Virus record (IMG/VR): IMGVR_UViG_3300031965_000001
Location: 7,267 to 71,266 of that record
Source: a virus
DNA: 64,000 nt
Strand: one strand, 5' to 3'
Of this stretch, positions 1-28,038 are shown in pieces. The notes under the pieces were generated by a model that had not been told where the DNA came from, did not search any database, and saw only the letters and a program-made list of their open reading frames with translations. Position 1 is the first letter of the stretch; the number at the start of each line of letters is the position of its first letter. The translations under genes were made by a program, and so were the position numbers.

Positions 1-351
1 GTAAAAATTAAAATCACAAACTTCCCCGTCCTGCTCACAAAGAAGTTTTAAGTCATAATATGACCAAACAGCCTCCGCGCCACGCCAGAGAGGAATCCAC
101 GACTTTATATCAGGAGTTTTTGTGCTCCTAACTGCGTATTGGACAATGGCGTATTTTTTACCTTGTTCTTTCAACCTTTCGATTAAATCCGTCATTCTTT
201 CCAATCTACCGATGATATTCACGATAACAAGATCTGCGTCGTCTATGTTATTCACTATCTCCACTGAACTGGGGGCGTGTTTTTCTAAGGCGTTAATCAC
301 CCTTGTCATTCCCCTGTCTCCTTTTTTGTGGGTTCTGGTGAAAACCCTCAT
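1..351 (-). CDS. Putative glycosyltransferase, N-terminal part (runs off window edge; absent from ORF track)
   Basis: Hand translation from ATG 351 is open to base 1: MRVFTRTHKKGDRGMTRVINALEKHAP...DADLVIVNIIG...AVWSYYDLKLLCEQDGEVCDFNFY. ATGA overlap with the GT2 stop. GT call rests on remembered resemblance and context. Confidence 0.5.
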   Translation of the reverse strand, partial: MRVFTRTHKKGDRGMTRVINALEKHAPSSVEIVNNIDDADLVIVNIIGRLERMTDLIERLKEQGKKYAIVQYAVRSTKTPDIKSWIPLWRGAEAVWSYYDLKLLCEQDGEVCDFNFY

Positions 352-1238
352 TTGCCCCAGTGTAATTTCTCCCTCTCTTTTAGTTTCTCAACTTCTTCAT
401 CCGACCACCCTGGCATCGGCATAAATTGATCTATCAGCCAAGAAAGAGGATATTTTTGGTCTTGCCAAACTTTTTCTCCTGCGAAGAATCGCATATTCAT
501 ATTTCTACCTTGTTTAAGCCAGCTACCATTCAAAGAGTATCCTCTACCATATTTTTTGCCCTTGTGCAAGTGAAAAAAATGCGCCTTTTTATTTGTCATA
601 ACCATCCCATCTCCTGCTAGATATGCCCGGAATGAAAGTTCTTGCGCCTCGCTCCAAAATGGTCCCCAATTTTTATCATCCATAAGACCAAGTTTCTGAA
701 AGTATTTTTTTGGCATCATCCAGCAACTCCCTTGAAATCCTATGTTTGGCGAAATCAATTCATCTTTTTTTTCTCTCGATCTCTCATCCCACTTTCTTCC
801 ATTTAATCCTGCCCCACCATAATCAGATGGGTTGTCTGGGAATGAAAGATACTCATAATCAATATGAGGCTTCCCCACATCCTGTTCACACCAATTCTCA
901 GCATCAAGGCGTCTTCGTTGTGGGATAACCACCCAATTGTCTTCGCACTCAGACGTTAAAACTTCATCAAACCCTTTTGACACGGAACAGTGACCGTCGA
1001 TCTTCACAAGATAATCTCCCTTTGCTATTGCTGCACAAGAATTTATTCCAGCCCTCATACCCATCGGTATCCCTTTATGTATATAAATAACCCTCGGATC
1101 GTCAATAGGATCACACCAATACCCATCGAGCGACACGATCACCTCAACATCTCCAGTACAGTTTTGTAAAATATCACGAATCGTATTGTCGAGGAATTTT
1201 TCATTGCGGGAAGGTATTAAGAAGGATGTCTTGGGCAT
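348..1238 (-). CDS. Glycosyltransferase family 2 (GT-A)
   Basis: SFLIPSRNE start, VIVSLDG, GMRAGINSCAAIAKGDYLVKIDGHC (DxH/DxD region), GSCWMM. Confidence 0.85.
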   Translation of the reverse strand: MPKTSFLIPSRNEKFLDNTIRDILQNCTGDVEVIVSLDGYWCDPIDDPRVIYIHKGIPMGMRAGINSCAAIAKGDYLVKIDGHCSVSKGFDEVLTSECEDNWVVIPQRRRLDAENWCEQDVGKPHIDYEYLSFPDNPSDYGGAGLNGRKWDERSREKKDELISPNIGFQGSCWMMPKKYFQKLGLMDDKNWGPFWSEAQELSFRAYLAGDGMVMTNKKAHFFHLHKGKKYGRGYSLNGSWLKQGRNMNMRFFAGEKVWQDQKYPLSWLIDQFMPMPGWSDEEVEKLKEREKLHWGK

Positions 1239-1247
1239 GAATGAATT

Positions 1248-1913
1248 CTAACCAATCCCATAAGCTGCCGCAAGGAATTTTTCTACCTCTGTAATATCTG
1301 CGTTTTCTGGAAGACTGCACTTCTCAAATTCCTCTTTACAGTGTTCCTCTAGCTGAAAAATCCTAGAAAAAATATCGCTGTCTGACTTTAGCCCGTTTTT
1401 TATTTGTACTAATTCCTCCAAGACTCCACCAGAATACTGCCCTATCAGTTCTCCTGTCTTCAAAAGATGCAACAGCTGGTATAGGGTTCTAACATGGGCA
1501 CAAGCATATTTGTATTTTCTGTTATCCCTTATGCCGTCATGGTCACGGAACTTTTTCTCCTGATTTTTCGAGTATCCTAAAAAGGCGTGAAAGCACCTTT
1601 TTGATAGGAATTTTGGTAATAATTTCTTCAAATCTTCGCCTAGAGGCGTCGTTGTTTTCGGAAGACCAACTAATACCTCTAAGGAAGATGGATTGCCCTG
1701 AGCGCACATTTTTAGGAACTTACATAATTCGTATGCAGTTGCATCCGTGTTCTCACCCTCAACCCAATGAGAATCCTTGACCGTTCTAAAAGGAGAAATA
1801 ATTTCGATAGGAGAAACCATAAAAACACCCCTTATATCTTCGTCGCTCTCTGGCGTGGCAGTACCGTGTAACCTAGAGCCGACGATGGTTGTGAGGATGA
1901 AATTCTTTTTCAT
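1248..1913 (-). CDS. Pol-beta superfamily nucleotidyltransferase (RlaP-like)
   Basis: GSRLHGTATPESDEDIRGVF = GS-x(10)-DxD motif. Start moved to ATG 1913, 1 nt after the PNK stop. Confidence 0.8.
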   Translation of the reverse strand: MKKNFILTTIVGSRLHGTATPESDEDIRGVFMVSPIEIISPFRTVKDSHWVEGENTDATAYELCKFLKMCAQGNPSSLEVLVGLPKTTTPLGEDLKKLLPKFLSKRCFHAFLGYSKNQEKKFRDHDGIRDNRKYKYACAHVRTLYQLLHLLKTGELIGQYSGGVLEELVQIKNGLKSDSDIFSRIFQLEEHCKEEFEKCSLPENADITEVEKFLAAAYGIG

Positions 1914-1914
1914 C

Positions 1915-2787
1915 TTAGAAATCATAATTAGGGTCTCCAACCTGAAAAACGTGAAGCCCCATTTTTCTCCATGCGTCACAAACTCTCGGTCGGTCGTCCA
2001 CAATAAACCTAGGGTTGAATTTTCCTCTTATATTTTCATCAAACATTCTAGTCTTAATCAATGCATCGTTCTCTGTATTACCCTCTGGTCTTATAAAGAA
2101 ATGGTGGTATTTTATTCCGTGTTTTTCGAGCCACTCCTTCGTTTCTTTTTCGCAAACCCCATCCCTTCCTGTCAAAATAATAATTTGATAACCAAGATCG
2201 TAATATGTTCTAGCCATGTGAGCAACTGGCTCGTTGACATCATCTTCTCCTACTCTGGACCAGTCGAAAGGTCCACGGTTTTTCATCAAAGCAAGCGTAC
2301 CGTCAGCGTCGAAAATTGCAGCATCAGGGAGCGAGTCGTCCATTTCATAACTATGCCTATGCACCTTCGGTCGTATGTACTGATTATACATTTGCATAAT
2401 CACCTTAACACCAACAGGATTTTCTCTTTTTGAGTCTCTATCAATACAAACATCAAGGGGGGTATCGAATTCTTTAATTTCAAAGTCTGCGCCATGAAAT
2501 TCTGCGAGAGAACGATATCTCTCTTCGTGGTAAGGATTGAAGTTTGTAGAATCTATTATCGGGATTCGACCAGATTCCAATGCCGCCTGTGCAATCGAAA
2601 ATTCAAACGCCTGAATCATTTTTTCCTTCGCCTTGCTCCATTTTCCATCGTGGAACATTTTTCTTAAATCATCTTTTGAAATTCTGACATATTTTATGGG
2701 GTCTTTTTCGACCAACGAACGGGCGTGTGTGCTTTTTCCAGAACTGGGTAAACCTCGTAAAAAATATATCTTTACCTTATTTACCAT
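1915..2787 (-). CDS. pseT: Polynucleotide 5'-kinase/3'-phosphatase (T4 PseT-like)
   Basis: P-loop RGLPSSGKST, RISKDDLR, HAD motif FDADGTLA, TGRD, VDDRPRV. Start placed at ATG 2787. Confidence 0.92.
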   Translation of the reverse strand: MVNKVKIYFLRGLPSSGKSTHARSLVEKDPIKYVRISKDDLRKMFHDGKWSKAKEKMIQAFEFSIAQAALESGRIPIIDSTNFNPYHEERYRSLAEFHGADFEIKEFDTPLDVCIDRDSKRENPVGVKVIMQMYNQYIRPKVHRHSYEMDDSLPDAAIFDADGTLALMKNRGPFDWSRVGEDDVNEPVAHMARTYYDLGYQIIILTGRDGVCEKETKEWLEKHGIKYHHFFIRPEGNTENDALIKTRMFDENIRGKFNPRFIVDDRPRVCDAWRKMGLHVFQVGDPNYDF

Positions 2788-2788
2788 T

Positions 2789-3886
2789 TTATTCTTCATC
2801 TTTAGAGAACGGTAGTGAATAAGGAGGCTCAACCATTTTCCATATAATTTCAGAATAGTCCTTTCCATCATACATGGAAAATAGGATGGAACTATACTCA
2901 CCACCCATTGCTCTTGCCATAGACGCAAAGTATTTTTTCCTCTCTTTTTGATCTTTTATTTTTTTCATCGAACTCATATCCATAATTGCTTCAAGTGTCT
3001 CCTTAGCCTGAGATTCTATATCGTTGTAATCGAATTCTATGTCCCTATATACCTTATTTGCCCATCTGAAAAATTCATCTGGCATTCCCTCTATCAGTTT
3101 CAATATGTCATCACCATTCTTCATGCCTTCCCAAATCTTTCGAGAGCTTGTCTGCGTTAAAATAGAGTGGAACCTGACATATTCTGGCAATTTGATTTTT
3201 ACTCTCAGATCGTCTTCAAATTTAACAACAACCCCTTCATTTTGCCCATCATCTATTGCAGAATCCAAATATTCATCTTTTGAAAGTTCAAATTTTTTCA
3301 CAATAGGAAACCCTACATTCTTAGCCACAGCCTCACAATATTTTCTGCCCATACTCTTCCCTGTCTCATTATCCAAAACATCTAGGAGTATAAGTTCCTC
3401 AAAATTATATTTTACGACGATTCTATTTTGTGGGTGAATTAACTCGAATAAAAGACTTTTCCCCTCTGGGAATCTAAAAATTGGCAAATATTTCTCAAGG
3501 AATAAATTCTTTCCAATTTCTGCTTGGACTGATTTGAAACTACCGACCGTGGAGAAACGCAAAAAACCACCGTACTTAAAAACCATAAAAAGAGATCCGT
3601 CCATTTTTTCCGTCACCTCATATTTTTTACTCCAATCTATTTTTTGCAATATAATCCCGTCGTGTTCTGAGTCGTTGAAAAATTTTCTAAATCCCCTCGC
3701 AACAACATTCCCACCATCGTCGAGAACCAATCCCCTACAAATTATAGAAAGATCGTCCCATTTTCTTTCGTAGGCACATTTTGCTGTGTATTTATATATT
3801 GTGAGCGGTAATCTGCTGTGCCGAGATGATCTAACGAGACCGCGCTCCACTAGATCATTTATTTTTTCTATGTCAACCCTCGTCAT
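2789..3886 (-). CDS. rnlA: RNA ligase 1 (T4 RnlA-like)
   Basis: CRGLVLD, adenylation motif TEKMDGS, LFELIHPQNRIVV, EGVVV, RVKIK. Confidence 0.9.
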   Translation of the reverse strand: MTRVDIEKINDLVERGLVRSSRHSRLPLTIYKYTAKCAYERKWDDLSIICRGLVLDDGGNVVARGFRKFFNDSEHDGIILQKIDWSKKYEVTEKMDGSLFMVFKYGGFLRFSTVGSFKSVQAEIGKNLFLEKYLPIFRFPEGKSLLFELIHPQNRIVVKYNFEELILLDVLDNETGKSMGRKYCEAVAKNVGFPIVKKFELSKDEYLDSAIDDGQNEGVVVKFEDDLRVKIKLPEYVRFHSILTQTSSRKIWEGMKNGDDILKLIEGMPDEFFRWANKVYRDIEFDYNDIESQAKETLEAIMDMSSMKKIKDQKERKKYFASMARAMGGEYSSILFSMYDGKDYSEIIWKMVEPPYSLPFSKDEE

Positions 3887-5967: not shown

Positions 5968-5996
5968 ATACTAGCATAGCCAAATAACAAAGTCAA
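5968..5996 (-). promoter_or_regulatory. Sigma70-type promoter with extended -10
   Basis: TTGACT-17 nt (ending TGC)-TAGTAT-6 nt-ATG 5961. Confidence 0.75.
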
Positions 5997-6514
5997 ATCT
6001 TTTTCTTCAGTGCTGCTCCTAATTTGGAGTACCGATCCAAGGTTTGATAATAGTAACGATGCAAAAACCGAAGTGAAAATGCCTCTTGAATACCCCTTGC
6101 CTGTATCAATTTCCATAACCAGATCAGGCGGCCACATCGTCCGTTCAGGTCTTCACACGGATGAATGTATTCATATTCATTGTGTGCTTTCCATGCGTCC
6201 ATCTCATCAAAATTCTCCCAAAATTTATCCATTAACTTTTGAACGTCTCTCCAGTCTGGGCAAACATGATTGCCAATCTGAACACTGCATCTCCTGTATT
6301 CCCCCTTATACATCAAGCTGCGACCTTCTGATAAAGATAAGTGAAGCTCTAAAAATTCCTTTTCTCCTATCTTCTCATACTCCAAAAATTTCTTTGCAGC
6401 ACTAACATCGTTTCTATTAAGAACACCTATCCAATTCTTTTCGTCTTCAAGTTCAAACTCTATGGCGTTCGACTCGCGCATGAACTTTTCAATAAGATTT
6501 TCGGGGATTTCCAT
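5993..6514 (-). CDS. Fic/Doc family protein
   Basis: HPCEDLNGRCGR matches the Fic motif HPFxDGNGRxxR; ESNAIE; YRRCSVQIG. Confidence 0.85.
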   Translation of the reverse strand: MEIPENLIEKFMRESNAIEFELEDEKNWIGVLNRNDVSAAKKFLEYEKIGEKEFLELHLSLSEGRSLMYKGEYRRCSVQIGNHVCPDWRDVQKLMDKFWENFDEMDAWKAHNEYEYIHPCEDLNGRCGRLIWLWKLIQARGIQEAFSLRFLHRYYYQTLDRYSKLGAALKKKI

Positions 6515-15764: not shown

Positions 15765-15929
15765 ATGCCAGACCATTCCACTGACCAGAACAGCTTCTTT
15801 AGGCTCCTCAACCTTGCCGCTACGACACGCGTGAAAGGAGAAGATCGAAAAGATGGTTTCCACTCTTCCGATGATTGTAACGCCACTGAAATTCAGAAAC
15901 ATAAGCGTGGAGCATCTTCGGAGAAATAA
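15765..15929 (+). CDS. Putative 54-aa leaderless ORF convergent on and overlapping the transposase 3' end
   Basis: TGC-TATAAT at 15749-15757, 7 nt to ATG; MPDHSTDQNSFFRLLNLAATTR... Confidence 0.4.
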   Translation: MPDHSTDQNSFFRLLNLAATTRVKGEDRKDGFHSSDDCNATEIQKHKRGASSEK

Positions 15930-16677
15930 CGTGATGCGTACCGTCTAGGCTGCGTTTTAGTTGGCTCCAAAAGCCTTCAATGGTGTTTGTATGCGTTCCA
16001 TTCTCTTTGGCGTACTGCTTAGCTCCATGCTGTACCGTGTCATGCTCCATTTCCAGTAGTGTTGCGATTTTCTTGTAGGTCTTGAGTTCATCGGTCATAA
16101 CTTTCGTACCCTTGGCGATATTGTTTTGGAAGTGTGGAAGCAAGGTTGACGCTCTTACGTTCTCTACAACGGAAGCGTTCATTTTGCCCTTTCTCTGTAC
16201 GGCTCCAAACACAATCGTTTTTCCTTCTGCTCCACGCCCACGTTTACCTTTTCGCTTACCACCTACAGCCGTTTCATCGGCTTCTACTTCCCCGAAAAGC
16301 ATTGTGGCATTCTCCTTCATTAGCTTCCGTACTTGATGCCCGATTCTATAGGCGCATTTGTAGGTAACGTCCAAAGCCCTCTCCAGTTCCTTCGCTGATA
16401 CACCATTGCGAGATTGAGAGAAAAGAAAGATGGCAAAAAACCACTTCACAAGGTCTGTAGAAGAATGGTCAAAGATCGTTCCCTCCTTCGGGAAGATGTG
16501 AGAGCAGCCGTTCTTACAGGTGTAGCAAGCCCGTGTAGGGTGCTTGTAGAACTTTGTCTCCCCGCATTTCGCACACTTTGGTTCGGGGAAGCGTGCGTTG
16601 AAGAGATATGCCAGACAGGTGTTGTTATCGGGGAATCTCTTGTGGAAGTTGAGAACAGAGAGGCGTTGTGCTTTCAT
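15820..16677 (-). CDS. IS1595-family DDE transposase
   Basis: Zn ribbon CAKC...CKNGC, VEADET, MTDE, TNTIEGFWSQLKR, EFQWRYN. Confidence 0.95.
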   Translation of the reverse strand: MKAQRLSVLNFHKRFPDNNTCLAYLFNARFPEPKCAKCGETKFYKHPTRACYTCKNGCSHIFPKEGTIFDHSSTDLVKWFFAIFLFSQSRNGVSAKELERALDVTYKCAYRIGHQVRKLMKENATMLFGEVEADETAVGGKRKGKRGRGAEGKTIVFGAVQRKGKMNASVVENVRASTLLPHFQNNIAKGTKVMTDELKTYKKIATLLEMEHDTVQHGAKQYAKENGTHTNTIEGFWSQLKRSLDGTHHVISPKMLHAYVSEFQWRYNHRKSGNHLFDLLLSRVS

Positions 16678-17613: not shown

Positions 17614-17796
17614 ATGAACAAAGGGAAATCTCGACGGGCATCTAAACATAAGAAAAGCGGAAAGTATTCTAAGACTTTCAGTCGTTCGGTAAAAAAGAAT
17701 GGTATGTGGAGAGGGAAAGTTGTGGACAAAATTGTTCATGATGCCTACCTTTCTGAACTCCGCCAAAAAACTAAGGCAGTCTCGGCAAACGGCTAA
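17614..17796 (+). CDS. Small basic hypothetical protein
   Basis: 60 aa, Lys/Arg-rich. Confidence 0.4.
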   Translation: MNKGKSRRASKHKKSGKYSKTFSRSVKKNGMWRGKVVDKIVHDAYLSELRQKTKAVSANG

Positions 17797-18376
17797 CAAC
17801 GACAGCCAGCTCCTCTCTTGTAACAAAATCAGTGGGTCTAAATAGCCCATCTTCGCCCCCCTTCATTATCCCCTTTTCTTTGCAATAGCGAACGGCTTCC
17901 TCGCTCCATCTTCCTATCTCTACGTCTGGGAATACTGGGATCGGTATGGGAATAGATGTATCTAGTTTAATGTTGGAAAAAGGTCGATATTGGTTGATTC
18001 TATAGGTATTTTTTACCAATTTCGCTGGAAAAACGAGCGGGTCAATCATTTGCTTCGTATCGTTGTTATAGCAAAAGAAATGTGTTTCATAGCCTTGATC
18101 TGCATAATCTCTTGTTCTCGCGATACACCACCCATCTGGAGGAGTATTGGTAGCCCCCAATGCCCTACCCCCGCAATATTTTGCTATTGTATCTGAAAAT
18201 ATAAGACCAGCATCATTAAATGCTCCATTCACTACCAATAATTCTGTAGGATGTTTCTGATAAAGATTCGCTAAGGAAACGAGAAAACAGCCAAATCCAG
18301 AAACCCGAAGATTGCTTCTGCCAAGGCTAGCATTTTGATAGCTAGGGTCGCGCTGCGAATGCAAAAAGGTTGTCAT
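17771..18376 (-). CDS. Peptidase C39-like domain plus C-terminal SLH domain (endolysin candidate)
   Basis: HSQRDP...GCFLVSLA...THF; SLH FPDV...WSEEAV...GIMKG...FRPTDFVTREE; promoter TTGCCC-17-TATAAT-7-ATG. Confidence 0.72.
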   Translation of the reverse strand: MTTFLHSQRDPSYQNASLGRSNLRVSGFGCFLVSLANLYQKHPTELLVVNGAFNDAGLIFSDTIAKYCGGRALGATNTPPDGWCIARTRDYADQGYETHFFCYNNDTKQMIDPLVFPAKLVKNTYRINQYRPFSNIKLDTSIPIPIPVFPDVEIGRWSEEAVRYCKEKGIMKGGEDGLFRPTDFVTREELAVVVSRLPRLP

Positions 18377-18450: not shown

Positions 18451-18525
18451 AGATGCTGACAAGGGCATTTCTTAGAAGATTACTTTCCGTGCACTGCTTG
18501 TCCATTGCACGGAGAATAGTCTTTT
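18451..18525 (+). ncRNA. Structured 5' leader, copy 1 (two hairpins with complementary loops)
   Basis: Differs from 20562-20637 at only 3 positions, all outside stems. Confidence 0.65.
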
Positions 18526-19140
18526 ATGGGCAAAGTTAAAGATATTACTGGACAGAAATTTGGAAAACTTACTGTCATTAAAAGACATGGAAATGATAAT
18601 TTTGGGCAAGCAACATGGGGTTGCCTTTGTGAATGCGGAAAGAAAAAAGTAGTAACAGGATATGATCTCAGGGGTGGACGCTCAAAGAGCTGCGGATGCC
18701 TACAAAGATCTGGAACACATGGTAAATCCAAAACACGACTATACAGAACTTGGGTCTCGATGAAGACCAGGTGCCTTGACGAAAACCACAACAGCTATGC
18801 TTCCTACGGGGGTAGAGGAATTAAAGTTTGCGAATATTGGCTTAACCCAAAAAATTTTATGGATTGGGCATTAAAAAATGGTTACGATATGGCGCTGCAG
18901 CTAGATCGTATAGACAATAATGGAAATTATTGCCCTGAAAATTGCAGATATGTAACATCGAAGAAGAATAATCAAAATAGATCTAATAATGTTACATATA
19001 TGGGAGAATGTGCGTCAGAAGCTAGCAGAAGATTGGGCGGAAAAAGAAATCTTGTTTCTAGCAGAATTCAATATGGAATGTCAATTGAAAAAGCATTTAC
19101 AACTCCACTAATGAGGAAACAAGTATCCAAATGCTCATAA
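18526..19140 (+). CDS. Free-standing HNH homing endonuclease
   Basis: DITGQKFGKLTV, CLCECG, YGGRGIKVC, LDRIDNNGNYCPENCRYV. Confidence 0.88.
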   Translation: MGKVKDITGQKFGKLTVIKRHGNDNFGQATWGCLCECGKKKVVTGYDLRGGRSKSCGCLQRSGTHGKSKTRLYRTWVSMKTRCLDENHNSYASYGGRGIKVCEYWLNPKNFMDWALKNGYDMALQLDRIDNNGNYCPENCRYVTSKKNNQNRSNNVTYMGECASEASRRLGGKRNLVSSRIQYGMSIEKAFTTPLMRKQVSKCS

Positions 19141-20478
19141 AGATGAGCCATCCCTCCTATCAAGGACACCATTAAAAATAGGCTCCCAGGATTCTCGAAA
19201 AATTTTATCCCACGTATACTGCTGCGCCCATTCGTATCCCCTTTCAACCTGCTTAAATGTTTCTGTACCCTCTTTGGGATGTGGCAATCTATTCCCCCCT
19301 TCGTCGGTACAGTCTATAAACACCCTCTTCATCTGTCTCGCCAGAGACACCGGATCTGTTACAGGACGAGGCGGATCTGAAAATTGTGAGGATCTGTCCA
19401 TAAATCTCCAGTTCCAATAACCATTCGGACCATTCCCAGATACACAGAATTTTCCTCTCTCTGCATCGCCTTTATTGCCATATTCTTCGCCAAGGATTTC
19501 TATGCTGGCTGTATTTCTTGGCATGATCACTGGGGTTTTTGTGGCTAAGGATTCACTCAATTGAAATCCCCAGCCCTCGCCCCTGTTGCTACTTACAGAG
19601 CAATCCGCAGCATTATAAAACATATTTATCTCTTCAGTCGTGAATCCATTTGGCGGGATGGACGGGAAAATAATGTGGTCTGCAACATCCTTCATGTGCT
19701 CATCCCTAATATAAATAAGGTTCTCTCCTGGTCCAGAAATAGGGTGCATGTGGAGAAGTAATTTGGGCTTTGGGGTATTAAACTCCTGCTTCTTCCACCA
19801 TCCCATAAAAATCTGGAAAGCGAACATCGTTTGGGGTATATCCTTCCTGACCTGATTCTTATTGAGGTTCATAAATAATGCCTGATTTCCATAGAGATGA
19901 AGCTCCTCTTTTCTAAAAACTTCCACCCCCTCCTCTGGAAGCGGCTTAAAAATATCTACGTTTGTCCCATGATATGCGATGGTAACCCTCTCTAGTTCTC
20001 TTTCTGGGATATGTTTTTTTAGCTGTTCCATACCAAAATTTGTATAGACAACAGGTTGGTCAAAAGACATCGCAGTTTTACACCATGTCTCAGGAATGTC
20101 AGAAGCATCCACTGGGAAATAAAAAATGCTTTTGAAATTCGCTCCCATAGCCCTTTTTCTAGCGAGTGCTGTAGATATTTCTTGCATCTGGAAACTATCT
20201 TCAATTGAGAAAAACACATCAAAATCTGTATTCATTATATATTTACATAATGCTTTTTTATTTAACTGCTTATCTCTTTCGTCTCTATCTGGGCTTCCTT
20301 CTAGCCTAGAATCAATAATTGTAAAGCGTTCGTCAGATTCTCCTGTGTGATTTATCGCCCAGATAGTAATATCACATTTATATGTCTTGTGCACAAGACC
20401 GAGGATTTCATTAGCCACACGCCCGAAGCCTGATGGGGCTAGGGGGCTATCACAAAATACGAGGATCTTCTTTTTCAT
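19135..20478 (-). CDS. GT-B glycosyltransferase (GT4-like)
   Basis: DSPLAPSGFGRV, YHGTN, LNKNQVRKD, YNAADCSVSSNRGEGWGFQLSESLA. Confidence 0.85.
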   Translation of the reverse strand: MKKKILVFCDSPLAPSGFGRVANEILGLVHKTYKCDITIWAINHTGESDERFTIIDSRLEGSPDRDERDKQLNKKALCKYIMNTDFDVFFSIEDSFQMQEISTALARKRAMGANFKSIFYFPVDASDIPETWCKTAMSFDQPVVYTNFGMEQLKKHIPERELERVTIAYHGTNVDIFKPLPEEGVEVFRKEELHLYGNQALFMNLNKNQVRKDIPQTMFAFQIFMGWWKKQEFNTPKPKLLLHMHPISGPGENLIYIRDEHMKDVADHIIFPSIPPNGFTTEEINMFYNAADCSVSSNRGEGWGFQLSESLATKTPVIMPRNTASIEILGEEYGNKGDAERGKFCVSGNGPNGYWNWRFMDRSSQFSDPPRPVTDPVSLARQMKRVFIDCTDEGGNRLPHPKEGTETFKQVERGYEWAQQYTWDKIFRESWEPIFNGVLDRRDGSSL

Positions 20479-20561: not shown

Positions 20562-20637
20562 AGATGCTGACAAGGGCATTTTATAGAAGATTACTTTCCG
20601 TGCACTGCTTGTCCATTGCACGGAGAATAGTCTTCTT
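20562..20637 (+). ncRNA. Structured 5' leader, copy 2
   Basis: Near-identical to 18451-18525. Confidence 0.65.
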
Positions 20638-21264
20638 ATGAGCAAGGTTATTTACATGAAAGGGGAGAAATTTGGAAGACTAACAGTGGTCAGAAGGGCA
20701 AAAAATGCTAACAATAGAAAGGCTATGTGGGAATGTACCTGTGAATGTGGTAAAAAAACAATAGTAATCGGTTACCAACTTAGATCAGGACGAACGAAAA
20801 GCTGTGGATGCCTTAGAATAGAAACAACTAGCAATAATATGAAGAGGCACGGGATGATAAATAGTAGTCTATATTGTGTCTGGGCTAGCATGAAGTCCAG
20901 ATGCCTTAACCCAAATACTAGGTGTTATCATAGATATGGAGGAAGGGGGATAAAAATTTGCAAAGAATGGATAGAATTTCTACCGTTCTATAATTGGGCT
21001 ACTGAAAATGGATTTGAAGACGGTCTTAAACTTGATCGAATAAATAACGACAGGGATTATGAACCGAAAAATTGCAGGTTTGTCACTCATGCAGAAAATA
21101 TGAGAAACATGAATTGTAATGTAAAATACAAAGGCGAATGCGCTTCAGAGGCATCAAGAAGGTTAGGGGGAAATCCAAGCCTTGTATCATGTAGAATTTT
21201 CCAAGGAATGTCTGTAGAGGAGGCATTCACCACTCCATTAAGAAAAAAGGGACAGGTCTCGTAA
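20638..21264 (+). CDS. Free-standing HNH homing endonuclease
   Basis: GEKFGRLTV, CTCECG, YGGRGIKIC, LDRINNDRDYEPKNCRFV. Confidence 0.88.
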   Translation: MSKVIYMKGEKFGRLTVVRRAKNANNRKAMWECTCECGKKTIVIGYQLRSGRTKSCGCLRIETTSNNMKRHGMINSSLYCVWASMKSRCLNPNTRCYHRYGGRGIKICKEWIEFLPFYNWATENGFEDGLKLDRINNDRDYEPKNCRFVTHAENMRNMNCNVKYKGECASEASRRLGGNPSLVSCRIFQGMSVEEAFTTPLRKKGQVS

Positions 21265-21282
21265 CCCATCCCTTATATTTTC

Positions 21283-21657
21283 CTACTGACCGATTTCCTT
21301 AGATTTTTCGTCTTTGACATCGGGAGCCGTAACGGTAACTTCTCCTTTGGGTTGGTTTACCGTCTGATTTGAAACAGAAGTTCTGGAAGCCAATAATCTC
21401 GCACTGTCCTGAGCGATTGGATACAAACCAGTCACGGTTCCACCAAGCACAATTCCTTGGTAGATGACATTTGACATAGCCGCTTCTCCGAGGGATGTGA
21501 CTCCGACTCCGATGAGAACGGCGACGATGGGCATAATGACATCTCTGTTGTCAGTAGAAAAAAACCTGTTGATTAATTTTCCAACGACAGCGGTAAGACC
21601 GACGATGACACCTGCCTGTAAAGCTAGACCTGTTAGTGAAATGCTATCTAAGTCCAT
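21283..21657 (-). CDS. Holin-like membrane protein
   Basis: Three TM segments, IMPIVAVLIG, GIVLGGTVTGLY, hydrophilic tail. Confidence 0.6.
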   Translation of the reverse strand: MDLDSISLTGLALQAGVIVGLTAVVGKLINRFFSTDNRDVIMPIVAVLIGVGVTSLGEAAMSNVIYQGIVLGGTVTGLYPIAQDSARLLASRTSVSNQTVNQPKGEVTVTAPDVKDEKSKEIGQ

Positions 21658-21708: not shown

Positions 21709-22137
21709 TCAATGCTTTTCACTTGCCTCATCCAAAAAGGATACAACAACACTTCTACTTCTTACCCCATCCATTTCTACAAGGAAAAGAGTCTCCCACT
21801 GCCCAAGTAGCATCTTTCCGTTAAGGACAGGGATCATTTCCGACGTATTAAATAATAAACTGCGAAGGTGAGAGTATCCATTAATTCTTTCGTCTGGCGG
21901 AACGTCCCTAATTCCCACGTAATCATGACGGAAGTGTCCTTTTTCTGGGAATGTATCTTCCAAGAATTTTAGGTAATCTGAATGAAGAAGAATTTCATTT
22001 TCAAGAATGCGAATGCTGGCAGTTGTATGCTGCGAAAACACATGGACAACACCATTGAACCCATCAGGTATTTTGTCCTGTACATCTCGCGTTATATTGG
22101 TGAACACCTTCTCTGTTGTAAAATTAAGTATAATCAT
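21709..22137 (-). CDS. yjbQ: YjbQ/UPF0047 family protein
   Basis: FTNIT, HVFSQHTTASIRILENE, NGYSHLRSLL, MLLGQWETLFLVEMDG.R.R. Confidence 0.85.
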   Translation of the reverse strand: MIILNFTTEKVFTNITRDVQDKIPDGFNGVVHVFSQHTTASIRILENEILLHSDYLKFLEDTFPEKGHFRHDYVGIRDVPPDERINGYSHLRSLLFNTSEMIPVLNGKMLLGQWETLFLVEMDGVRSRSVVVSFLDEASEKH

Positions 22138-22745
22138 CTTTCAATGAGGTAAGTTCTATCCACAGCTATCCCTATATGCGTTCCCCTCGGGTATTCACCC
22201 TTTACCATTTTCAAAACATGGTCAGCAATTCTCTCTGGGTCTAATAGCGTGTTTGGGTCTTCATCTGGAAACAAATCCTTCCTCATTTTTGTCGCTATCC
22301 TATGCGGAGAAATACAATAGGCATTTACCCCCTCCTCCACCAAAGATTCCGTCAAGGAGATCAGCCCAGCTTTACTCGCAGAATATCCACTCCATCCACC
22401 TCGCCCCTTTAATCCCGCTGCCGAGGCTATGTTAATAATAGTATGAGCACCATTCAAAAGGGCATATTTTGTACAATAGTATGCGCCGAGGAGATTCACA
22501 GAAATTTCTCTCTCCCAAAATTTTACAGAGTCGTTAGATGGATCATCAACACGGGCTGGATGTATGTATCCAGCGCAATTTACAAGAATTTTTGGTCTAT
22601 TCTCCTCCATAAATTCTTTTACCTCTTCTGATATTGTTATATCTAGGTCGTTGCTTCCTGGTGACATGCAATTTGGAAACCGAGAAGCTACAGCCTGAGC
22701 AGTTCCGCCAGTACCGCCAGTGACTAGAACTAAATCGTTTTGCAC
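22134..22745 (-). CDS. SDR oxidoreductase, putative ribitol-5-phosphate dehydrogenase
   Basis: TGGTGG, VNCAG, NIAS, YSASK; coupled to the IspD-like gene. Confidence 0.75.
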   Translation of the reverse strand: MQNDLVLVTGGTGGTAQAVASRFPNCMSPGSNDLDITISEEVKEFMEENRPKILVNCAGYIHPARVDDPSNDSVKFWEREISVNLLGAYYCTKYALLNGAHTIINIASAAGLKGRGGWSGYSASKAGLISLTESLVEEGVNAYCISPHRIATKMRKDLFPDEDPNTLLDPERIADHVLKMVKGEYPRGTHIGIAVDRTYLIER

Positions 22746-23314
22746 AGTGATTCGAGAATAGGCAAGTCTTCTTTATATGTCAATTTATATAGATTCCTAC
22801 CGCCCTCCAGAATTTTTGGTTTTACATCCCAGTATTCCTTAAATATCACAGTGTCATCTGTGGCATTTTCCATATTCGTGTGCTTGTGAGCCATCCTAAG
22901 ACTATTGAGATCAAACGCCTGTGGCACCTGTAGTGCAATCAGACCAGACCTTTTATAATCTCCATCATCATAAATAGTATCGACTGGCTCAATGCCGAAT
23001 GTCACTGATGGGTGTTCTAACACAGCCCCCTTTATACATTCTATTTGAAAAGGAGTTACGAGCGGTCTCACAGCATCAAAAATAACAACATAATCTCCAC
23101 TCACATTATTGATACCAATTTTACAAGATTCCTGCCTCGTCTTCCCCCCTGGTACATCCATTCCGACAATAACGATGTCGTCAAAATGATCTTCACAAGT
23201 ATCAGAAACCCACTTCCAAACTGGCTTACCGCTTAGGAATATATCTTGTTTTTTTTTGTCACCAGAGAACCTCTCTCCATTCCCGCCAGATAATATGATG
23301 GCGCTAAACCGCAT
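22730..23314 (-). CDS. IspD/TarI-family cytidylyltransferase
   Basis: ILSGGNGERF...K, GGKTRQES, FDAVRP, LQVPQAF, TDD, KLTYKEDL. Confidence 0.88.
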   Translation of the reverse strand: MRFSAIILSGGNGERFSGDKKKQDIFLSGKPVWKWVSDTCEDHFDDIVIVGMDVPGGKTRQESCKIGINNVSGDYVVIFDAVRPLVTPFQIECIKGAVLEHPSVTFGIEPVDTIYDDGDYKRSGLIALQVPQAFDLNSLRMAHKHTNMENATDDTVIFKEYWDVKPKILEGGRNLYKLTYKEDLPILESLCKTI

Positions 23315-24281
23315 TTTCTATGAAATGAACACAGTTATTTATAGCGTTACCGCAGTTAAAAAGCAACTGATCTTTCCAAAAATCTCTCCTATCCTTGAAA
23401 TAAGATTCCTTATTTTTTACTGCAATATCTATCTCTTTTTTAAGTTCAGATATATCATCTATATTCCTCCCAATGGTCATATCCTCCTGTTTTTTTGCGG
23501 TTAAATACGACCCCCTTTTTCTTGATTCCACATTAATCGTACTCCCATTAGGTGCAAGTATTTGTATAACTGGAAGGTCTGGTATTGCCAAAGCCTCAAA
23601 ACCAGAACTTGAAAAATCTGTTAAAACAACATCTGATATCGAAAGAAGATCATTGACATTCGGAGTTTCTATGTACCAAGGATAATTTTTATCGTATCCC
23701 CACCCCCTGAATTTTCGGTATGTGAGTTCGTGTGGTGCGATAATAAGATTAGGGATATTTAGAGAAACAATATCAGGAGTCCTAACCCATGCTGCTGAGT
23801 GGCTTGGAACCCAAGAAATTATTGGATACCCCTCTATGAAGGGACTCTTCATTTTTTTCTCAATTTCTTTTAGGATTTCTGATCTGTGATCCCTCATGGA
23901 AATCAACTCATCAGACTTCGGGTATCCAGTTACGACACATTTTTCTTTAACATCTTCAGCCCTGTTTACCCACCACTTCCCCGATACCAGAATCCAATCA
24001 AATTTACTATAAGAGTGGTTATTAAGAGGAAAAACAGACCTTAAAGGATTTATCCCATGCTCAATACAAATTTTCTTTCCACAATCACCCTTAAATTCAT
24101 TCACCAAAATAGAATAAGAAGTGATTGTACAGTCAGACCTTTCAAGGTGTATACCGTTTTTCAGGTCTTTCCTAGCCAAGTTTTTCAATATGATTTTGTG
24201 TCCTCTTTTTTCAAGTTCATCAAGGACTGACTTTGCAGAATATAGGTGCTGGTCGTGGCAATAAACATATTGGACGCGCAT
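23304..24281 (-). CDS. CDP-glycerol/ribitol phosphotransferase-like (TagB/TagF family), paralog 2
   Basis: IEHGIN, TGYPKSD, WVPSH, PHE, LLSISDVVLTDFSS; start placed at ATG 24281. Confidence 0.75.
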   Translation of the reverse strand: MRVQYVYCHDQHLYSAKSVLDELEKRGHKIILKNLARKDLKNGIHLERSDCTITSYSILVNEFKGDCGKKICIEHGINPLRSVFPLNNHSYSKFDWILVSGKWWVNRAEDVKEKCVVTGYPKSDELISMRDHRSEILKEIEKKMKSPFIEGYPIISWVPSHSAAWVRTPDIVSLNIPNLIIAPHELTYRKFRGWGYDKNYPWYIETPNVNDLLSISDVVLTDFSSSGFEALAIPDLPVIQILAPNGSTINVESRKRGSYLTAKKQEDMTIGRNIDDISELKKEIDIAVKNKESYFKDRRDFWKDQLLFNCGNAINNCVHFIENAV

Positions 24282-24282
24282 C

Positions 24283-25350
24283 CTAAAGAACAGAATTTTC
24301 CAAAAAATCGCAAACATCTTTTGTAGCATTCCCAGCATTATGGAAAATCTCATCCCTCCAAAATTCCCTCTCTTTCCGATGGTAGTCCGATTGCTCTATA
24401 AGTGCATCAGAAACCTCATTCTTTAAAATAGATAAATCACTCACATTCGCCCCCAATCTGAATTCCCTATCATCATTTTGTGAAAGAGGATAGTGACCGT
24501 TTTTTAGAACGTCAAACTCACTTCTGTTGTGGAATTTCATATCTTTCAATATCTGAATAATCGGTATGTTCAACAGTGTTGCCTCTACCCCCGCACTTGA
24601 ATAATCAGTAATGACTAGATCAGATGCCAAGAGAACGTCATATATTGTATCTGTCTCGATATAATATGGGTAATCCTCTTTGTAATTCATTTTCATTCTT
24701 CCGTCTCTAAATGCCGCATAACTTCCCTCATGTGGCGCAACTACAACATTATATTCATTGCCAATCCTATCTAAAATTTCGTCGGTCATATCGCATGCGC
24801 CTCCGTGGGTGGGAACCCACGAGATTATGGGACCAGACTTAAAATCCTGCTTAACAAAATCACGAAGCCTCTGCCTATATTTTCTCCTCACTTCCTGAGT
24901 GCCCTTCCCAACAAGAAAATCAGCCTTTGGCCATCCTGTCATCTTGCATTTTGGCAAAAGATCATAATTAAACAATGACCTCCTTACAGCATCCATTTGC
25001 CATTTTCCAGTAACAAAAACATGGTCGAATAATCTATGCCTATCTAGTGGAAATCCCCAAGCGATAGGGTTCACACCATGTTCAATACATACCGTTTTTT
25101 TACATCCATGATCGAACCGTATTCTGCCATTCTTCTTATCTCTCAATGTTTGCATTATCCTCGGATAAGAACAAATGAAAATATCACCGTTTGAAATATC
25201 TACATCTTCAAATCCTGGTTTCCTTTTCCGTATATCATCGTGGATTAGGCTGACTTCTGCTATATCATGCCCACGTTTGTCCATCTCTTCTAAAACAGGG
25301 TTCACTGCTGACCAATGTTGCCGACCACAATAAGCATGGATAATTTTCAC
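24283..25350 (-). CDS. CDP-glycerol/ribitol phosphotransferase-like (TagB/TagF family), paralog 1
   Basis: IEHGVN, TGWPKAD, WVPTH, PHE, LLASDLVITDYSS. Confidence 0.78.
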   Translation of the reverse strand: MKIIHAYCGRQHWSAVNPVLEEMDKRGHDIAEVSLIHDDIRKRKPGFEDVDISNGDIFICSYPRIMQTLRDKKNGRIRFDHGCKKTVCIEHGVNPIAWGFPLDRHRLFDHVFVTGKWQMDAVRRSLFNYDLLPKCKMTGWPKADFLVGKGTQEVRRKYRQRLRDFVKQDFKSGPIISWVPTHGGACDMTDEILDRIGNEYNVVVAPHEGSYAAFRDGRMKMNYKEDYPYYIETDTIYDVLLASDLVITDYSSAGVEATLLNIPIIQILKDMKFHNRSEFDVLKNGHYPLSQNDDREFRLGANVSDLSILKNEVSDALIEQSDYHRKEREFWRDEIFHNAGNATKDVCDFLENSVL

Positions 25351-25356
25351 TCAAGA

Positions 25357-25385
25357 ATTATAGATTTCTGATGAATTATTGTCAA
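25357..25385 (-). promoter_or_regulatory. Perfect-consensus sigma70 promoter of the phosphotransferase operon
   Basis: TTGACA-17-TATAAT-6 nt-GTG 25350. Confidence 0.85.
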
Positions 25386-27310
25386 ACCTCAATTTCTAAT
25401 GCTATGCCATTGCTACCCGAATTACCAGGGCTACCATCTACTCCAAGTGCCCCTCCGCCATCTGGGGCACCGGCAGACCCAGCAGCCCCCCCAGCAGCTC
25501 CTGTAAGAACATAAGAGCCTGTCCATCCAGAGTTGTCTGAATAAATGTTAATTCCTGAGCCTCCACTTCCCCCTGCACCACCACCACCACCACCGCCTGA
25601 GCCACCGGTATCTGCAGGGGCACCACTACCGTAAGTACCATTGCCACCATCCCCTCCTAGGCCCCCAGTAGAAACAATGTCCCAGTTTCCATCCATTACC
25701 TTAGCAGACACAAACCACCTTCCACCCTCTCCACCAGAACCACCACCACCACCGCCGCCGCCGCCATTAGAACCAACTGGGGGTGTACCAGCATTTCCAC
25801 CGCCGCCCCCACCTCCGCCACTTCCACTTCCACCGTTTCCTTTTATTTCAGATAATGTTTCCCCTTTACTGGTTATCATCCTCGGCAAATCTACAATATA
25901 TTTTTTAGATATTGATCCATCAGTAGCAGTCCCTGCTGGTCCCGCAGAACCACCAGGTGCCCCATTTCCAGCAGGACCAGCACTACCTGAGCCGCCAGCA
26001 CCACCTGAGCCGCCAGCAGATCCGCTTGTAGATCCAATTGAATTAGTCACTGACGTACCTGCTGTCCCAGCAGACCCAGGATTACCGTTAGCAACTGGCT
26101 CGCCTGATTTTCCGCTTCCTCCTGATCCACCAGTCTTTCCTGCTGTAGAATCTGGCAATGTCACCCCACTAGACGCTGCCCCAGCAGATCCGCCACTACC
26201 ACCAGGAGTACCACCAACAGGAGCTGCGTTCCCACCGTTACCTCCGTTGCCGCCACCAGGGGCGAAGATCCCACCACCGCCAGAAGAATCTGTTATTCTC
26301 CTTGCAAAAACCCTATACCCACCAGTGGTAAGATTAAAACCGGCAAGGTCTAATGTCTCATAATGTGCATCTGATGTTATGGAATCATTCCCAGTCAAAG
26401 TCTCATTACCATCTGATCCAGTACCCCATAAAAAAAGATTTTCTAAATCACCCTGCTCGGGTATTTGTGGTGTCTGCATTTGGAAATTTGTTCCATCAAA
26501 TTGAACATCAATAACCATATCTTCTTCTATATCGCCAGGTGATATGGTTCCGTCTTTATTTTTTCTTAAATCAACAGATGCGAATGCAACTCCCCTAGAA
26601 TCTGTTACGATTATACCAACTGCGCCTGTTACTGTTTGATTCGACTTAAATGAAAACCTAAGACCCTCTGTAATTTCAAGAATTGGGTATGGGAGCGTTA
26701 CATTAAAAGTATCGGATGACCCCGTTGCCGAACCTACATACCCCAATTCTCCAGAATAAACAGATTGGAGTGCCTGTATATTTATTTTTGATGGTTGCCT
26801 TGTGTCTACTATATCGCTATTTGTTATTGTCGAAAAAGAATCTGGCGTAATAATATCTGCCAATCTATAAAAACCATCTCCAGAATCTAATTCTGCTATT
26901 ATAGCTGCATCTGATAAAGCCGAAGTTCCTGTCCCCTCTATAAGCTCGATAGTTCCGTTATTATCAGCTTCCGCATCTGGGACTACCCCCGCCTGAACCC
27001 TAGCGATAACTGCATCGACACGATCATCCCCAGAGCTATTCGCAGGTACTGTCAATAACTCCTCTTCTGTGACATAGATTCTTTCTGAGTGTGGGTCTTC
27101 TAAGCCATCGTCAATACCAGAAATATACACCCGACCAACCTTAACCTTTACCTGATTATCTGGTGTATCATTTTCTACAACTTGGCAGTCGCTACCATCC
27201 CCCGAAAAATCTGCGACACCACTTTTAATAAGGTCTGTTTCTAAAAGAGAAACATCGACACTATTCCACAAGCGGCTGGGGGAGTTGCGATACGAAACAC
27301 GAACAGACAT
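25382..27310 (-). CDS. Tail fibre/receptor-binding protein with Gly-rich C-terminal domain
   Basis: Minor-tail-type N-terminus, about 280 aa of G-x-x/GGxG repeats, position after the hub; promoter TTGATT-17-TAGTGT-6-ATG. Confidence 0.75.
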   Translation of the reverse strand: MSVRVSYRNSPSRLWNSVDVSLLETDLIKSGVADFSGDGSDCQVVENDTPDNQVKVKVGRVYISGIDDGLEDPHSERIYVTEEELLTVPANSSGDDRVDAVIARVQAGVVPDAEADNNGTIELIEGTGTSALSDAAIIAELDSGDGFYRLADIITPDSFSTITNSDIVDTRQPSKINIQALQSVYSGELGYVGSATGSSDTFNVTLPYPILEITEGLRFSFKSNQTVTGAVGIIVTDSRGVAFASVDLRKNKDGTISPGDIEEDMVIDVQFDGTNFQMQTPQIPEQGDLENLFLWGTGSDGNETLTGNDSITSDAHYETLDLAGFNLTTGGYRVFARRITDSSGGGGIFAPGGGNGGNGGNAAPVGGTPGGSGGSAGAASSGVTLPDSTAGKTGGSGGSGKSGEPVANGNPGSAGTAGTSVTNSIGSTSGSAGGSGGAGGSGSAGPAGNGAPGGSAGPAGTATDGSISKKYIVDLPRMITSKGETLSEIKGNGGSGSGGGGGGGGNAGTPPVGSNGGGGGGGGGSGGEGGRWFVSAKVMDGNWDIVSTGGLGGDGGNGTYGSGAPADTGGSGGGGGGGAGGSGGSGINIYSDNSGWTGSYVLTGAAGGAAGSAGAPDGGGALGVDGSPGNSGSNGIALEIEV

Positions 27311-27363: not shown

Positions 27364-28038
27364 CTACGCCTTGAATCCACTCCAAAAATTCACAGAAAAC
27401 CTCCAGTCTGCTGGGTTTTTACTTTTCACCTTTACATTTTCAACGCTATGTAAGAAATGAGACGGGAAAAATACTATTCTATTATGCTTAGGAACCACCT
27501 TTTCTATCCTTTTCCCAAACTTAAACATAATAGATCCGCCTGTAAACTGCTCAGGGATAGTGTTTGCATAATATACAGCAGTAATGACCCTACCTGCTAT
27601 ATTCGTTCCTATTGCATCCGTATGCCATCCATAAAAATCACACTTACCATATCTGCTTAAAATCATCTCACTGTGGGTTGTCCTATAAATAACAGAAAGG
27701 AGTGTGTCCCCCATCTCTTTTTTGAGGATCTTATCTTGATATGTGACTTCTTCCAGTTTTTTTATTATGAATGATTTGTGCCTATCTCCAGTACCTTTCC
27801 CATATAATTCCTCTAAATATACAACATCATTTTTTCTCATCTTATTATTTAATACTCCTTTATCACCATCCATCACTTTTGCTGGTTCATAGAATGGTGC
27901 AAGATAAACACACTCATCTAGCACTGCCTGAGAATCTTTTTCGGGTAAAAAATTATCGACAATCAAAATAGGGGCACCGTCCATCCACTGAAATTCCATC
28001 GTATTCGCCTCTGATTCTTTCTTTTTTGGCACAGGCAA
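27364..28038 (-). CDS. 2OG-Fe(II) oxygenase, prolyl-4-hydroxylase-like
   Basis: YGWHTD (HxD), FTGG, PKHNRIVFF, HSV, RFSVNFW. Confidence 0.88.
   Translation of the reverse strand: MPVPKKKESEANTMEFQWMDGAPILIVDNFLPEKDSQAVLDECVYLAPFYEPAKVMDGDKGVLNNKMRKNDVVYLEELYGKGTGDRHKSFIIKKLEEVTYQDKILKKEMGDTLLSVIYRTTHSEMILSRYGKCDFYGWHTDAIGTNIAGRVITAVYYANTIPEQFTGGSIMFKFGKRIEKVVPKHNRIVFFPSHFLHSVENVKVKSKNPADWRFSVNFWSGFKA

Follow-up and report, generated by a model that had tools for sequence, protein, structure and literature searches.

Enzymes encoded by a phage that would decorate a glycan with alditol-phosphate are the subject of the present analysis. Their genes lie in a 64-kb stretch (hereafter, the window) of the 105.9-kb IMG/VR virus record IMGVR_UViG_3300031965_000001, which comes from a soil metagenome, is estimated to be about 70% complete and carries within the window a siphovirus-type tail block with tape measure, Dit and tail proteins. 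We consider it somewhat probable that an operon at positions 21709-25385 and a glycosyltransferase gene beyond its 3' end form a self-contained module for decorating a glycan with alditol-phosphate, in a small clade of siphoviruses whose hosts probably belong to the candidate phyla radiation (CPR). The operon comprises the following features, given with their window coordinates and profile matches.

25385..25357, minus strand: promoter-like site of the sigma-70 type, TTGACA-17-TATAAT, 12/12 match
25350..24283, minus strand: TagF-like A, GTG start, 355 amino acids (aa); PF04464, E 9.6e-11, 41.7 bits (cut-off 22.1)
24281..23304, minus strand: TagF-like B, 325 aa from the ATG at 24281 (open reading frame 24353..23304); PF04464, E 4.9e-07, 29.5 bits (cut-off 22.1)
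23314..22730, minus strand: IspD/TarI-family cytidylyltransferase, 194 aa; PF01128, E 3.6e-20
22745..22134, minus strand: short-chain dehydrogenase/reductase (SDR), 203 aa; PF00106, E 1.8e-20
22137..21709, minus strand: YjbQ/UPF0047 protein, 142 aa; PF01894, E 7.6e-29, 100.7 bits (cut-off 27); TIGR00149, 87.3 bits (cut-off 67.75)

All five minus-strand open reading frames of this region (21709-25385) are intact. A first-pass annotation had read them as a tightly coupled operon, and Pfam and NCBIfam profiles, by which we assigned the operon proteins, confirm each family that it had named. The genes abut or overlap by 4 to 16 nucleotides (nt): B shares 11 nt with the cytidylyltransferase gene, which in turn shares 16 nt with the SDR gene, and the SDR and YjbQ genes share 4 nt. 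The ATG of B at 24281 lies one base past the stop codon of A. Since the similarity of B to A and its orthologues begins at Met25 of the longer open reading frame, this ATG is most likely the true start. The placement of the operon between tail fibre and holin also holds, with a 642-aa fibre-like gene upstream and a 124-aa holin-like gene downstream. Its extent was only partly right: the five genes do lie within 21709-25385, but a family 4 glycosyltransferase (GT4) gene at 20478..19135 had been overlooked as a member of the module.

TagF-like A and B are paralogues with 34% identity, and they account for all PF04464 matches in the whole genome record. Both had been taken for TagB/TagF-like phosphotransferases, with the proviso that GT-B proteins of this kind might model as ordinary sugar or sialyl transferases. 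For the AF2 model of A (predicted local distance difference test, pLDDT, 92.5), TagF, TarL and Cps3D take the first 16 places among the Foldseek matches (E 1e-13 to 8e-11, template modelling (TM) score 0.57-0.66), and generic GT-B folds rank behind them (from E 1.6e-9, TM 0.55 or less). A phmmer search of A against the PDB sequences gave no match, and a family profile was required, which retrieved Cps3D, TarL and TagF at E 5e-28 to 3e-22. Furthermore, the structure clusters of the ESM Atlas nearest to A all belong to PF04464, and the nearest short ones are bacterial. The viral structure library returned only generic GT-B folds for the A model and no TagF-like viral model. The PF04464 scores above cut-off, the profile and the Foldseek ranking together support the view that A and B are TagF-family CDP-alditol phosphotransferases and not ordinary sugar or sialyl transferases, as far as sequence and model can tell.

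The putative active site points the same way. TagB, TagF and TarL have two invariant histidines (PMC10901376). In a hidden Markov model (HMM) alignment, H207 of the phage family (motif APHE) aligns with the histidine of the TarL KMHP motif (H433, which contacts the donor phosphate) and with that of the TagF RMHY motif. Neither H207 nor H91 varies among 31 family members, and A and B keep both. H91 (motif IEHG) stands at the end of strand 85-89, upstream of the HMM-aligned region; its invariance and position make it a putative counterpart of the catalytic base TagF H444 or TarL H300.

The family around A is very small. A search of 5.8 billion proteins yielded 10 relatives, and among 1.84 billion representatives six clusters matched at E<1e-30, followed by a gap to E 8e-10. 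In 50,697 phage genomes no match was found to the region (megablast) or to TagF-like A and a head-region protein (tblastn), and the INPHARED phages, including SP-15, have no detectable similarity to A. IMG/VR was scanned with patterns from A by itself and from its alignment, and no relative appeared beyond the window's own record. A scan of metagenome contigs added two short close relatives, the other 66 loci being distant ordinary PF04464 genes. The closest IMG/VR relative of the phage, IMGVR_UViG_3300009788_000299 (L102, L103), is a 23.9-kb contig with capsid and tail-tube proteins 74-76% identical to those of the window; the contig stops short of the fibre region.

The first-pass annotation had recognized in the IspD and SDR genes the architecture of Haemophilus Bcs1, and this likeness is borne out. 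Across their whole length, the two window proteins each match one half of the Bcs1-type bifunctional enzymes, at about 25-34% identity. In orthologous phage loci (L002, L005, L006, L009, L010, L099 and L101) they are fused into one protein of 417-453 aa, and they are separate in the window and in L007. The fused protein falls within a wide bacterial family, 'bifunctional cytidylyltransferase/SDR family oxidoreductase'; some members carry the JGI name ribitol-5-phosphate 2-dehydrogenase / D-ribitol-5-phosphate cytidylyltransferase, and the best PDB match of a fused relative is the ribitol-5-phosphate cytidylyltransferase TarI. In the window cytidylyltransferase the IspD motifs GxGxR, KQ, DAVRP, QxPQxF, TDD and KxT are kept (alignment A4), with G11, G13, R15, K22, Q23, D80, R83, P84, Q129, P131, Q132, F134, T152, D153, D154, K177 and T179 invariant between it and the Bcs1-type enzymes. 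The protein is 65% identical to its split L007 orthologue, and it is without an insertion of about 22 residues that is present in the Bcs1-type enzymes. The SDR keeps the catalytic N-S-Y-K residues together with a C-terminal PxRxxTxMR motif specific to the Bcs1-type SDR group (alignment A3, where N84, S108, Y121, K125, P147, R149, T152, M154 and R155 are invariant).

These alignments support a split Bcs1-type bifunctional synthase, and its predicted product is most likely CDP-ribitol. A role of the IspD-like protein in the methylerythritol phosphate (MEP) pathway was considered and rejected: its score for the IspD model TIGR00453 is below cut-off, no other MEP genes are present, its partner is an SDR and the likely host class uses mevalonate (PMC4736985). 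A YjbQ gene, in the window coupled to the SDR gene at the level of translation, accompanies the split IspD and SDR genes both there and in L007. The literature on the YjbQ family describes promiscuous activities only and no established physiological function.

The setting of the operon adds a sugar transferase and genes for attachment and lysis. The surrounding features are as follows.

27310..25382, minus strand: fibre-like protein, 642 aa, with conserved N-terminal 290 aa and Gly/Ser/Thr-rich C-terminal half
21657..21283, minus strand: holin-like protein, 124 aa, two hydrophobic segments; PHROG holin families
21247..21274, minus strand: terminator-like hairpin directly 3' of the holin gene
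20638..21264, plus strand: HNH homing-endonuclease, PHROG 374, E 1.5e-65; not in the pathway
20478..19135, minus strand: GT4 glycosyltransferase, 447 aa; PHROG 2170, E 3e-24
18376..17771, minus strand: protein with C-terminal surface-layer homology (SLH) domain (Pfam E 1.1e-10), probable wall-binding lysin, 201 aa

The first-pass annotation had suggested HMM searches and a survey of synteny as checks. The searches matched PF04464 in A and B, PF01128 in the cytidylyltransferase and PF00106 in the SDR, and the survey found a kept gene order in about 12 related metagenomic phage loci: tail protein, fibre, TagF-like, methyltransferase, IspD-SDR, holin, GT4, endolysin. In the relatives, the holin-like slot is occupied by a product roughly 100 aa long that has two hydrophobic segments. 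The SLH lysin gene closes the block that runs in the window from the fibre over the module to lysis. An orthologue of it follows GT4 in L009, and SLH endolysins follow it in L007 and L099; the endolysin is of the Amidase_2+SLH type in the latter two loci and of the Peptidase_M15_4 type in L005. Identity to the GT4 orthologues is 60-64% for L005, L006 and L009 and 30% for L007. Thus, the GT4 gene is part of the functional unit, parted from the operon by the holin and HNH genes. The HNH gene splits holin and GT4 in the window and is missing at that place in the related loci. The only PDB sequence match of GT4 is chlorovirus B736L, its nearest Atlas clusters are 96-100% viral, and homologues in Tetrasphaera phage TJE1 and Synechococcus phage S-CBS4 stand with methyltransferases and nucleotide-sugar genes beside head genes.

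The module of the window is a mosaic. TagF-like A and GT4 are nearest to the L005/L006/L009 type, and the IspD, SDR and YjbQ proteins are nearest to the split L007 type (54-65% identity). The relatives have a single TagF-like gene, and a methyltransferase takes the place of TagF-like B, which is known from this phage only and occupies their methyltransferase slot. Fusions of a TagF-like protein with Methyltransf_23, 594-610 aa long, were found in three representatives (P0011, P0013 and P0014; L099:833-2617). A 2-oxoglutarate (2OG)-Fe(II) oxygenase gene (27364-28038, minus strand) was considered as a module member and rejected: L005 has no such gene between tail protein and fibre, and in L007 the 224-aa protein encoded ahead of the TagF-like gene is unrelated to it, so the oxygenase is an add-on of this phage.

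From the observed gene content, families, fold, catalytic residues and fibre-to-lysis synteny, we infer a substrate (ribitol), an order of steps, a short chain length and a target. The SDR would reduce a ketose phosphate of the host pentose phosphate pathway, most likely ribulose-5-phosphate, to the alditol phosphate, which the IspD-like enzyme would convert with CTP to a CDP-alditol, most likely CDP-ribitol. TagF-like A and B would each move one alditol-phosphate from the CDP-alditol to an acceptor hydroxyl by means of the two conserved histidines, and the GT4 enzyme would supply or extend the sugar that bears the alditol-phosphate. In related phages, an S-adenosylmethionine-dependent methyltransferase, sometimes fused to the TagF-like enzyme, would cap the product in place of TagF-like B, and in the phage studied here the second transferase would add a second unit instead of the methyl cap.

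The product expected from the comparison of sequences and models is a short decoration, i.e., one or two alditol-phosphates on a sugar, and not a long teichoic-acid chain. The first-pass annotation had envisaged poly(ribitol-phosphate), with a TagB-like primer and a TagF/TarL-like polymerase building a long chain. Two serial paralogues do recall TagB and TagF, and the best structural matches are polymerases, but the comparison structures available are polymerases only. The family polymerases have an additional N-terminal domain (TarL paper, PMC10901376). In contrast, A and B are bare, minimal GT-B domains of 325-355 aa without that domain, and the model of A opens directly with strand 1; neither model nor hydropathy revealed an extra N-terminal domain, an N-terminal amphipathic helix or a hydrophobic segment. 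Furthermore, TagF-like B is unique to this phage, and the lone TagF-like gene of the relatives precedes a methyltransferase or is fused to it; such a pairing of one transferase domain with a methyltransferase suggests that a unit is added once and then capped. The long polymer therefore appears improbable, and that part of the annotation is not upheld.

The host is probably a member of the tiny, uncultured Peregrinibacteria/Peribacteria, which belong to the CPR. The best clue is an IS1595-family transposase (15820-16677, minus strand) with 81-83% identity to copies in metagenome-assembled genomes (MAGs) of Candidatus Peribacteria/Peregrinibacteria. Five MAGs of this lineage have 17-40 SLH domain matches each, which fits the SLH domain on the lysin-like protein of the window and on the endolysins of its relatives. 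None of the five has a PF04464 match or an IspD above cut-off, so the phage appears to bring a pathway that the host lineage lacks. Peribacteria have a mevalonate pathway, a pentose phosphate pathway and a Gram-positive-like envelope with an S-layer (PMC4736985), and the precursor ribulose-5-phosphate should be available in the host.

What the alditol-phosphate is attached to is the least secure step of the proposal. We prefer the phage's own virion proteins, the fibre or other surface-exposed ones, which would be modified in the cytoplasm before assembly, although this preference is tentative and carries a little more doubt than confidence. The arguments for it are the viral group to which GT4 belongs, the head-gene neighbourhood of the GT4 homologues in TJE1 and S-CBS4, and the soluble-looking enzymes. 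A second glycan set of two family 2 glycosyltransferases (GT2) and a methyltransferase beside a DUF2460-match protein was also counted toward a virion target. The module loci examined contain neither exporter nor flippase nor ligase. The record (about 70% complete) yielded no integrase or resolvase, and lysogenic conversion is therefore not indicated. The fibre-like protein, whose L005 orthologue has a phage tail Collar domain, is a candidate acceptor. Virion glycosylation in mycobacteriophages offers a precedent (Freeman et al. 2023, as cited in PMC12363180). The full statement that the phage coats its tail fibre or virion proteins with a short ribitol-phosphate glycan, through a complete phage pathway lacking in the host, is doubtful when all of its parts are taken together.

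Accessory genes for host interaction are often located between the fibre and lysis genes, and the enzymes could instead put sugar and alditol-phosphate onto a lipid-linked precursor of a host wall polymer or S-layer glycan, e.g., of the secondary cell-wall polymer bound by SLH domains, which the host would then export. Such remodelling might mask receptors, bringing superinfection exclusion and less loss of progeny on debris, or it might alter the attachment of the CPR cell. TagF-family enzymes classically use lipid-linked wall or capsule polymers (PMC10901376), the short PF04464 clusters nearest to A come from bacteria, holin and SLH-lysin genes are interleaved with the module in all loci, and nucleotide-sugar genes of CPR phages have been interpreted as serving surface modification (bioRxiv 10.1101/2025.02.25.640227). 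However, no membrane anchor or amphipathic N-terminal helix was found, and the isoelectric point (pI) is acidic (6.3 for A; 5.9-6.6 for A and its orthologues). The module loci examined have no flippase, ABC exporter or LytR-CpsA-Psr (LCP) ligase, the five host-lineage MAGs without PF04464 and IspD offer no evident teichoic-type pathway to feed, lysogenic conversion finds no integrase or resolvase to carry it, and GT4 comes from an almost exclusively viral group. On balance we regard the host envelope as a rather unlikely target.

DNA is the least probable acceptor of all. GT-B enzymes do glycosylate phage DNA, and GT4 with the TagF-like enzymes might place sugar and alditol-phosphate on a modified base, by which restriction would be evaded. 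The PF04464 gene of phage SP-15 lies in a 10-gene carbohydrate cluster that its authors tied to a phospho-esterified hypermodified base (PMC5977210), and a Mom-family gene is found elsewhere in the genome studied here. On the other hand, the 105.9-kb, ~70% complete record has no PF00303 (thymidylate-synthase-family hydroxymethylase) match and hence no evident hydroxyl-bearing base, the module sits between fibre and lysis genes and away from the replication genes, and TagF-like A is dissimilar to all INPHARED phages including SP-15. Decoration of DNA is thus very improbable. The absences of integrase, resolvase and PF00303 are all soft, because the record is incomplete.

Several points weigh against the virion reading and against the module as drawn. 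Each step rests on the comparison of sequences and models. H91 is likened to TagF H444 and TarL H300 by invariance and position, not by aligned residues. The window IspD scores 110 bits for TIGR00453 (IspD; cut-off 181) and 39 for the ribitol-5-phosphate cytidylyltransferase model (cut-off 166), and since it falls below both, the alditol could be another than ribitol; arabinitol, glucitol and mannitol types exist in bacteria. Peripheral membrane binding is compatible with the absence of hydrophobic segments, and the bacterial enzymes in the short PF04464 clusters closest to A presumably have lipid-linked glycans as substrates. The interleaving of holin and lysin genes with the module is as compatible with an envelope role as with a virion role, and the record covers only about 70% of the genome. 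For GT4 together with the conserved first 300 residues of the fibre, complex prediction gave 0.01, a score that speaks neither for nor against. Finally, a C-terminal serine of capsid or tail tube was tried as the decoration site and rejected because it is not conserved in one close relative: in the window the last residue is Ser for the tail tube and Ala for the capsid candidate, and the two are reversed in the relative with 74-76% identity.

The first-pass annotation had also pointed to a perfect promoter of the operon. The TTGACA-17-TATAAT site is an exact match, the strongest in the window and the sole perfect one in its 64 kb (0.03 expected from shuffles). The -35 hexamer shares bases with the stop codon of the 642-aa fibre-like gene, and the -10 hexamer ends 6 nt ahead of the GTG of TagF-like A; with so short a gap the transcript would be leaderless. 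Promoter-like boxes of the form TTGnnn-17-TAnnnT stand 6-7 nt ahead of the start codon in 9 of the 87 putative genes, compared with 1.4 expected at random positions, and the starts so marked include 18376 (SLH lysin), 25350, 29385 (a tail gene), 5961 and 6514. This points to leaderless transcripts being frequent in this phage. A weaker promoter-like box precedes the fibre gene; for the holin gene a separate TAGTAT box is present, with a leader of 25 nt. From the promoter it had been argued that the operon is not simply part of a late structural transcript. Since similar boxes precede a tail gene (29385) and the lysin gene (18376), the operon promoter is no proof of a timing apart from the late genes, and that argument is weak.

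The second glycan set named above consists of a 296-aa GT2 (window 348-1238, minus strand), a 567-aa GT2 just outside the window (L028:4426-6129, minus strand) and a 216-aa Methyltransf_24 protein (L028:6126-6776, minus strand) beside a 1476-aa DUF2460-match protein (L028:21-4451, minus strand). In total, the phage has three glycosyltransferases, two TagF-like enzymes and one methyltransferase. The Mom-family protein (PF25680, E 1.3e-44) is encoded outside the window, at L029:5463-6131 on the minus strand (genome 76463-77131), and its family suggests that this phage has a separate DNA modification of the adenine type. The two HNH genes (starts at 18526 and 20638) are preceded by nearly identical stretches of 50 nt (18476-18525 and 20588-20637, plus strand), although they break the module-lysis block at different places. 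A further HNH endonuclease lies inside the intein splicing domain of a 979-aa protein outside the window (L030:2955-5894, minus strand). The window also carries an RNA repair set of an RlaP-like nucleotidyltransferase, a PNKP kinase-phosphatase and a T4-type RNA ligase, together with a Fic/DOC protein (1248-3886 and 5993-6514, minus strand).

Known PF04464 enzymes, namely TagB/TarB/TarF and TagF/TarL of wall teichoic acid and the Cps3D/Bcs3 capsule domains, share with A the GT-B fold and the donor-domain motifs. The likeness to TagF, TarL and Cps3D extends to the histidine equivalent to TarL H433 and to adjacent genes for CDP-alditol synthesis, and the phage family has a second invariant histidine in its N-domain. 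The phage enzymes, however, are only 14-17% identical to the solved TagF, TarL and Cps3D and form a very small family of their own. In contrast to TagF and TarL, they lack the N-terminal polymerase domain and membrane helices, have an acidic pI and are encoded by a phage whose likely host lineage is without PF04464, and in their relatives a methyltransferase is partner or fusion part. The same IspD-family and SDR pair is known from Bcs1/Acs1 of Haemophilus influenzae (ribulose-5-phosphate reductase and ribitol-5-phosphate cytidylyltransferase) and from TarI/TarJ of Gram-positives. Orthologous phage loci are fused in the Bcs1 order, and the motif residues of both halves are common to them. The window differs from Bcs1 in that the halves are separate genes overlapping by 16 nt, with YjbQ coupled to them, and in that the substrate is a predicted one.

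Among phages, the mycobacteriophages Che8, Corndog and Myrna offer a parallel: their own glycosyltransferases act on the capsid and tail-tube proteins, according to the accounts of Freeman et al. 2023 given in PMC12363180 and PMC12619734. Those accounts, so far as they are relayed there, report no alditol-phosphate chemistry, and the module of the window differs further in lying between fibre and lysis genes. Bacillus phage SP-15 likewise has a PF04464 gene (gene 151) clustered with glycosyltransferases and nucleotide-sugar enzymes (PMC5977210). The two systems share no detectable similarity, SP-15 has a hydroxymethyl-dUMP synthase whereas the window record has no PF00303, and the SP-15 gene list as quoted in PMC5977210 contains no IspD-SDR pair. 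Gene 151, which is uncharacterised, is the only viral PF04464 gene in the literature that we searched (PMC5977210). That literature held no phage-encoded CDP-ribitol pathway and no characterised phage TagF-like enzyme. An analogy outside bacteria may also be drawn. In alpha-dystroglycan, ISPD/CRPPA makes CDP-ribitol, and FKTN and FKRP each add one ribitol-phosphate; these two have a fold of the LicD-type nucleotidyltransferases, not of PF04464, and act in the eukaryotic secretory pathway. The phage module would resemble this system in having an IspD-family synthase that feeds two sequential single-unit transferases acting on a protein-bound glycan.

Alditol-phosphate transfer is textbook chemistry of the bacterial cell wall and capsule. 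Four traits are distinctive here: a very small TagF-like family of its own, a location of the module between the genes for fibre and lysis, a second copy of the transferase, and a host that probably belongs to the CPR. For the preparation of CDP-alditols and defined alditol-phosphate glycoconjugates, the split Bcs1-type synthase and the TagF-like enzymes, which are minimal and apparently soluble, are possible tools. For the biology of these viruses, a complete and portable set of functions, covering CDP-alditol synthesis, transfer, sugar addition and cap, is conserved in a phage clade. If the host surface were the target, the module would give a rare view of a phage reshaping the envelope of a CPR bacterium, whose surface governs symbiotic attachment. 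If, instead, the virion is the target, glycosylation of the phage particle would be extended to a new chemistry and to a new branch of bacteria. Alditol-phosphate modification of a viral protein would then be seen for the first time, as a bacterial-virus counterpart of the tandem ribitol-phosphate of alpha-dystroglycan, and the decoration might act as a teichoic-acid mimic, tuning adsorption or shielding the particle.

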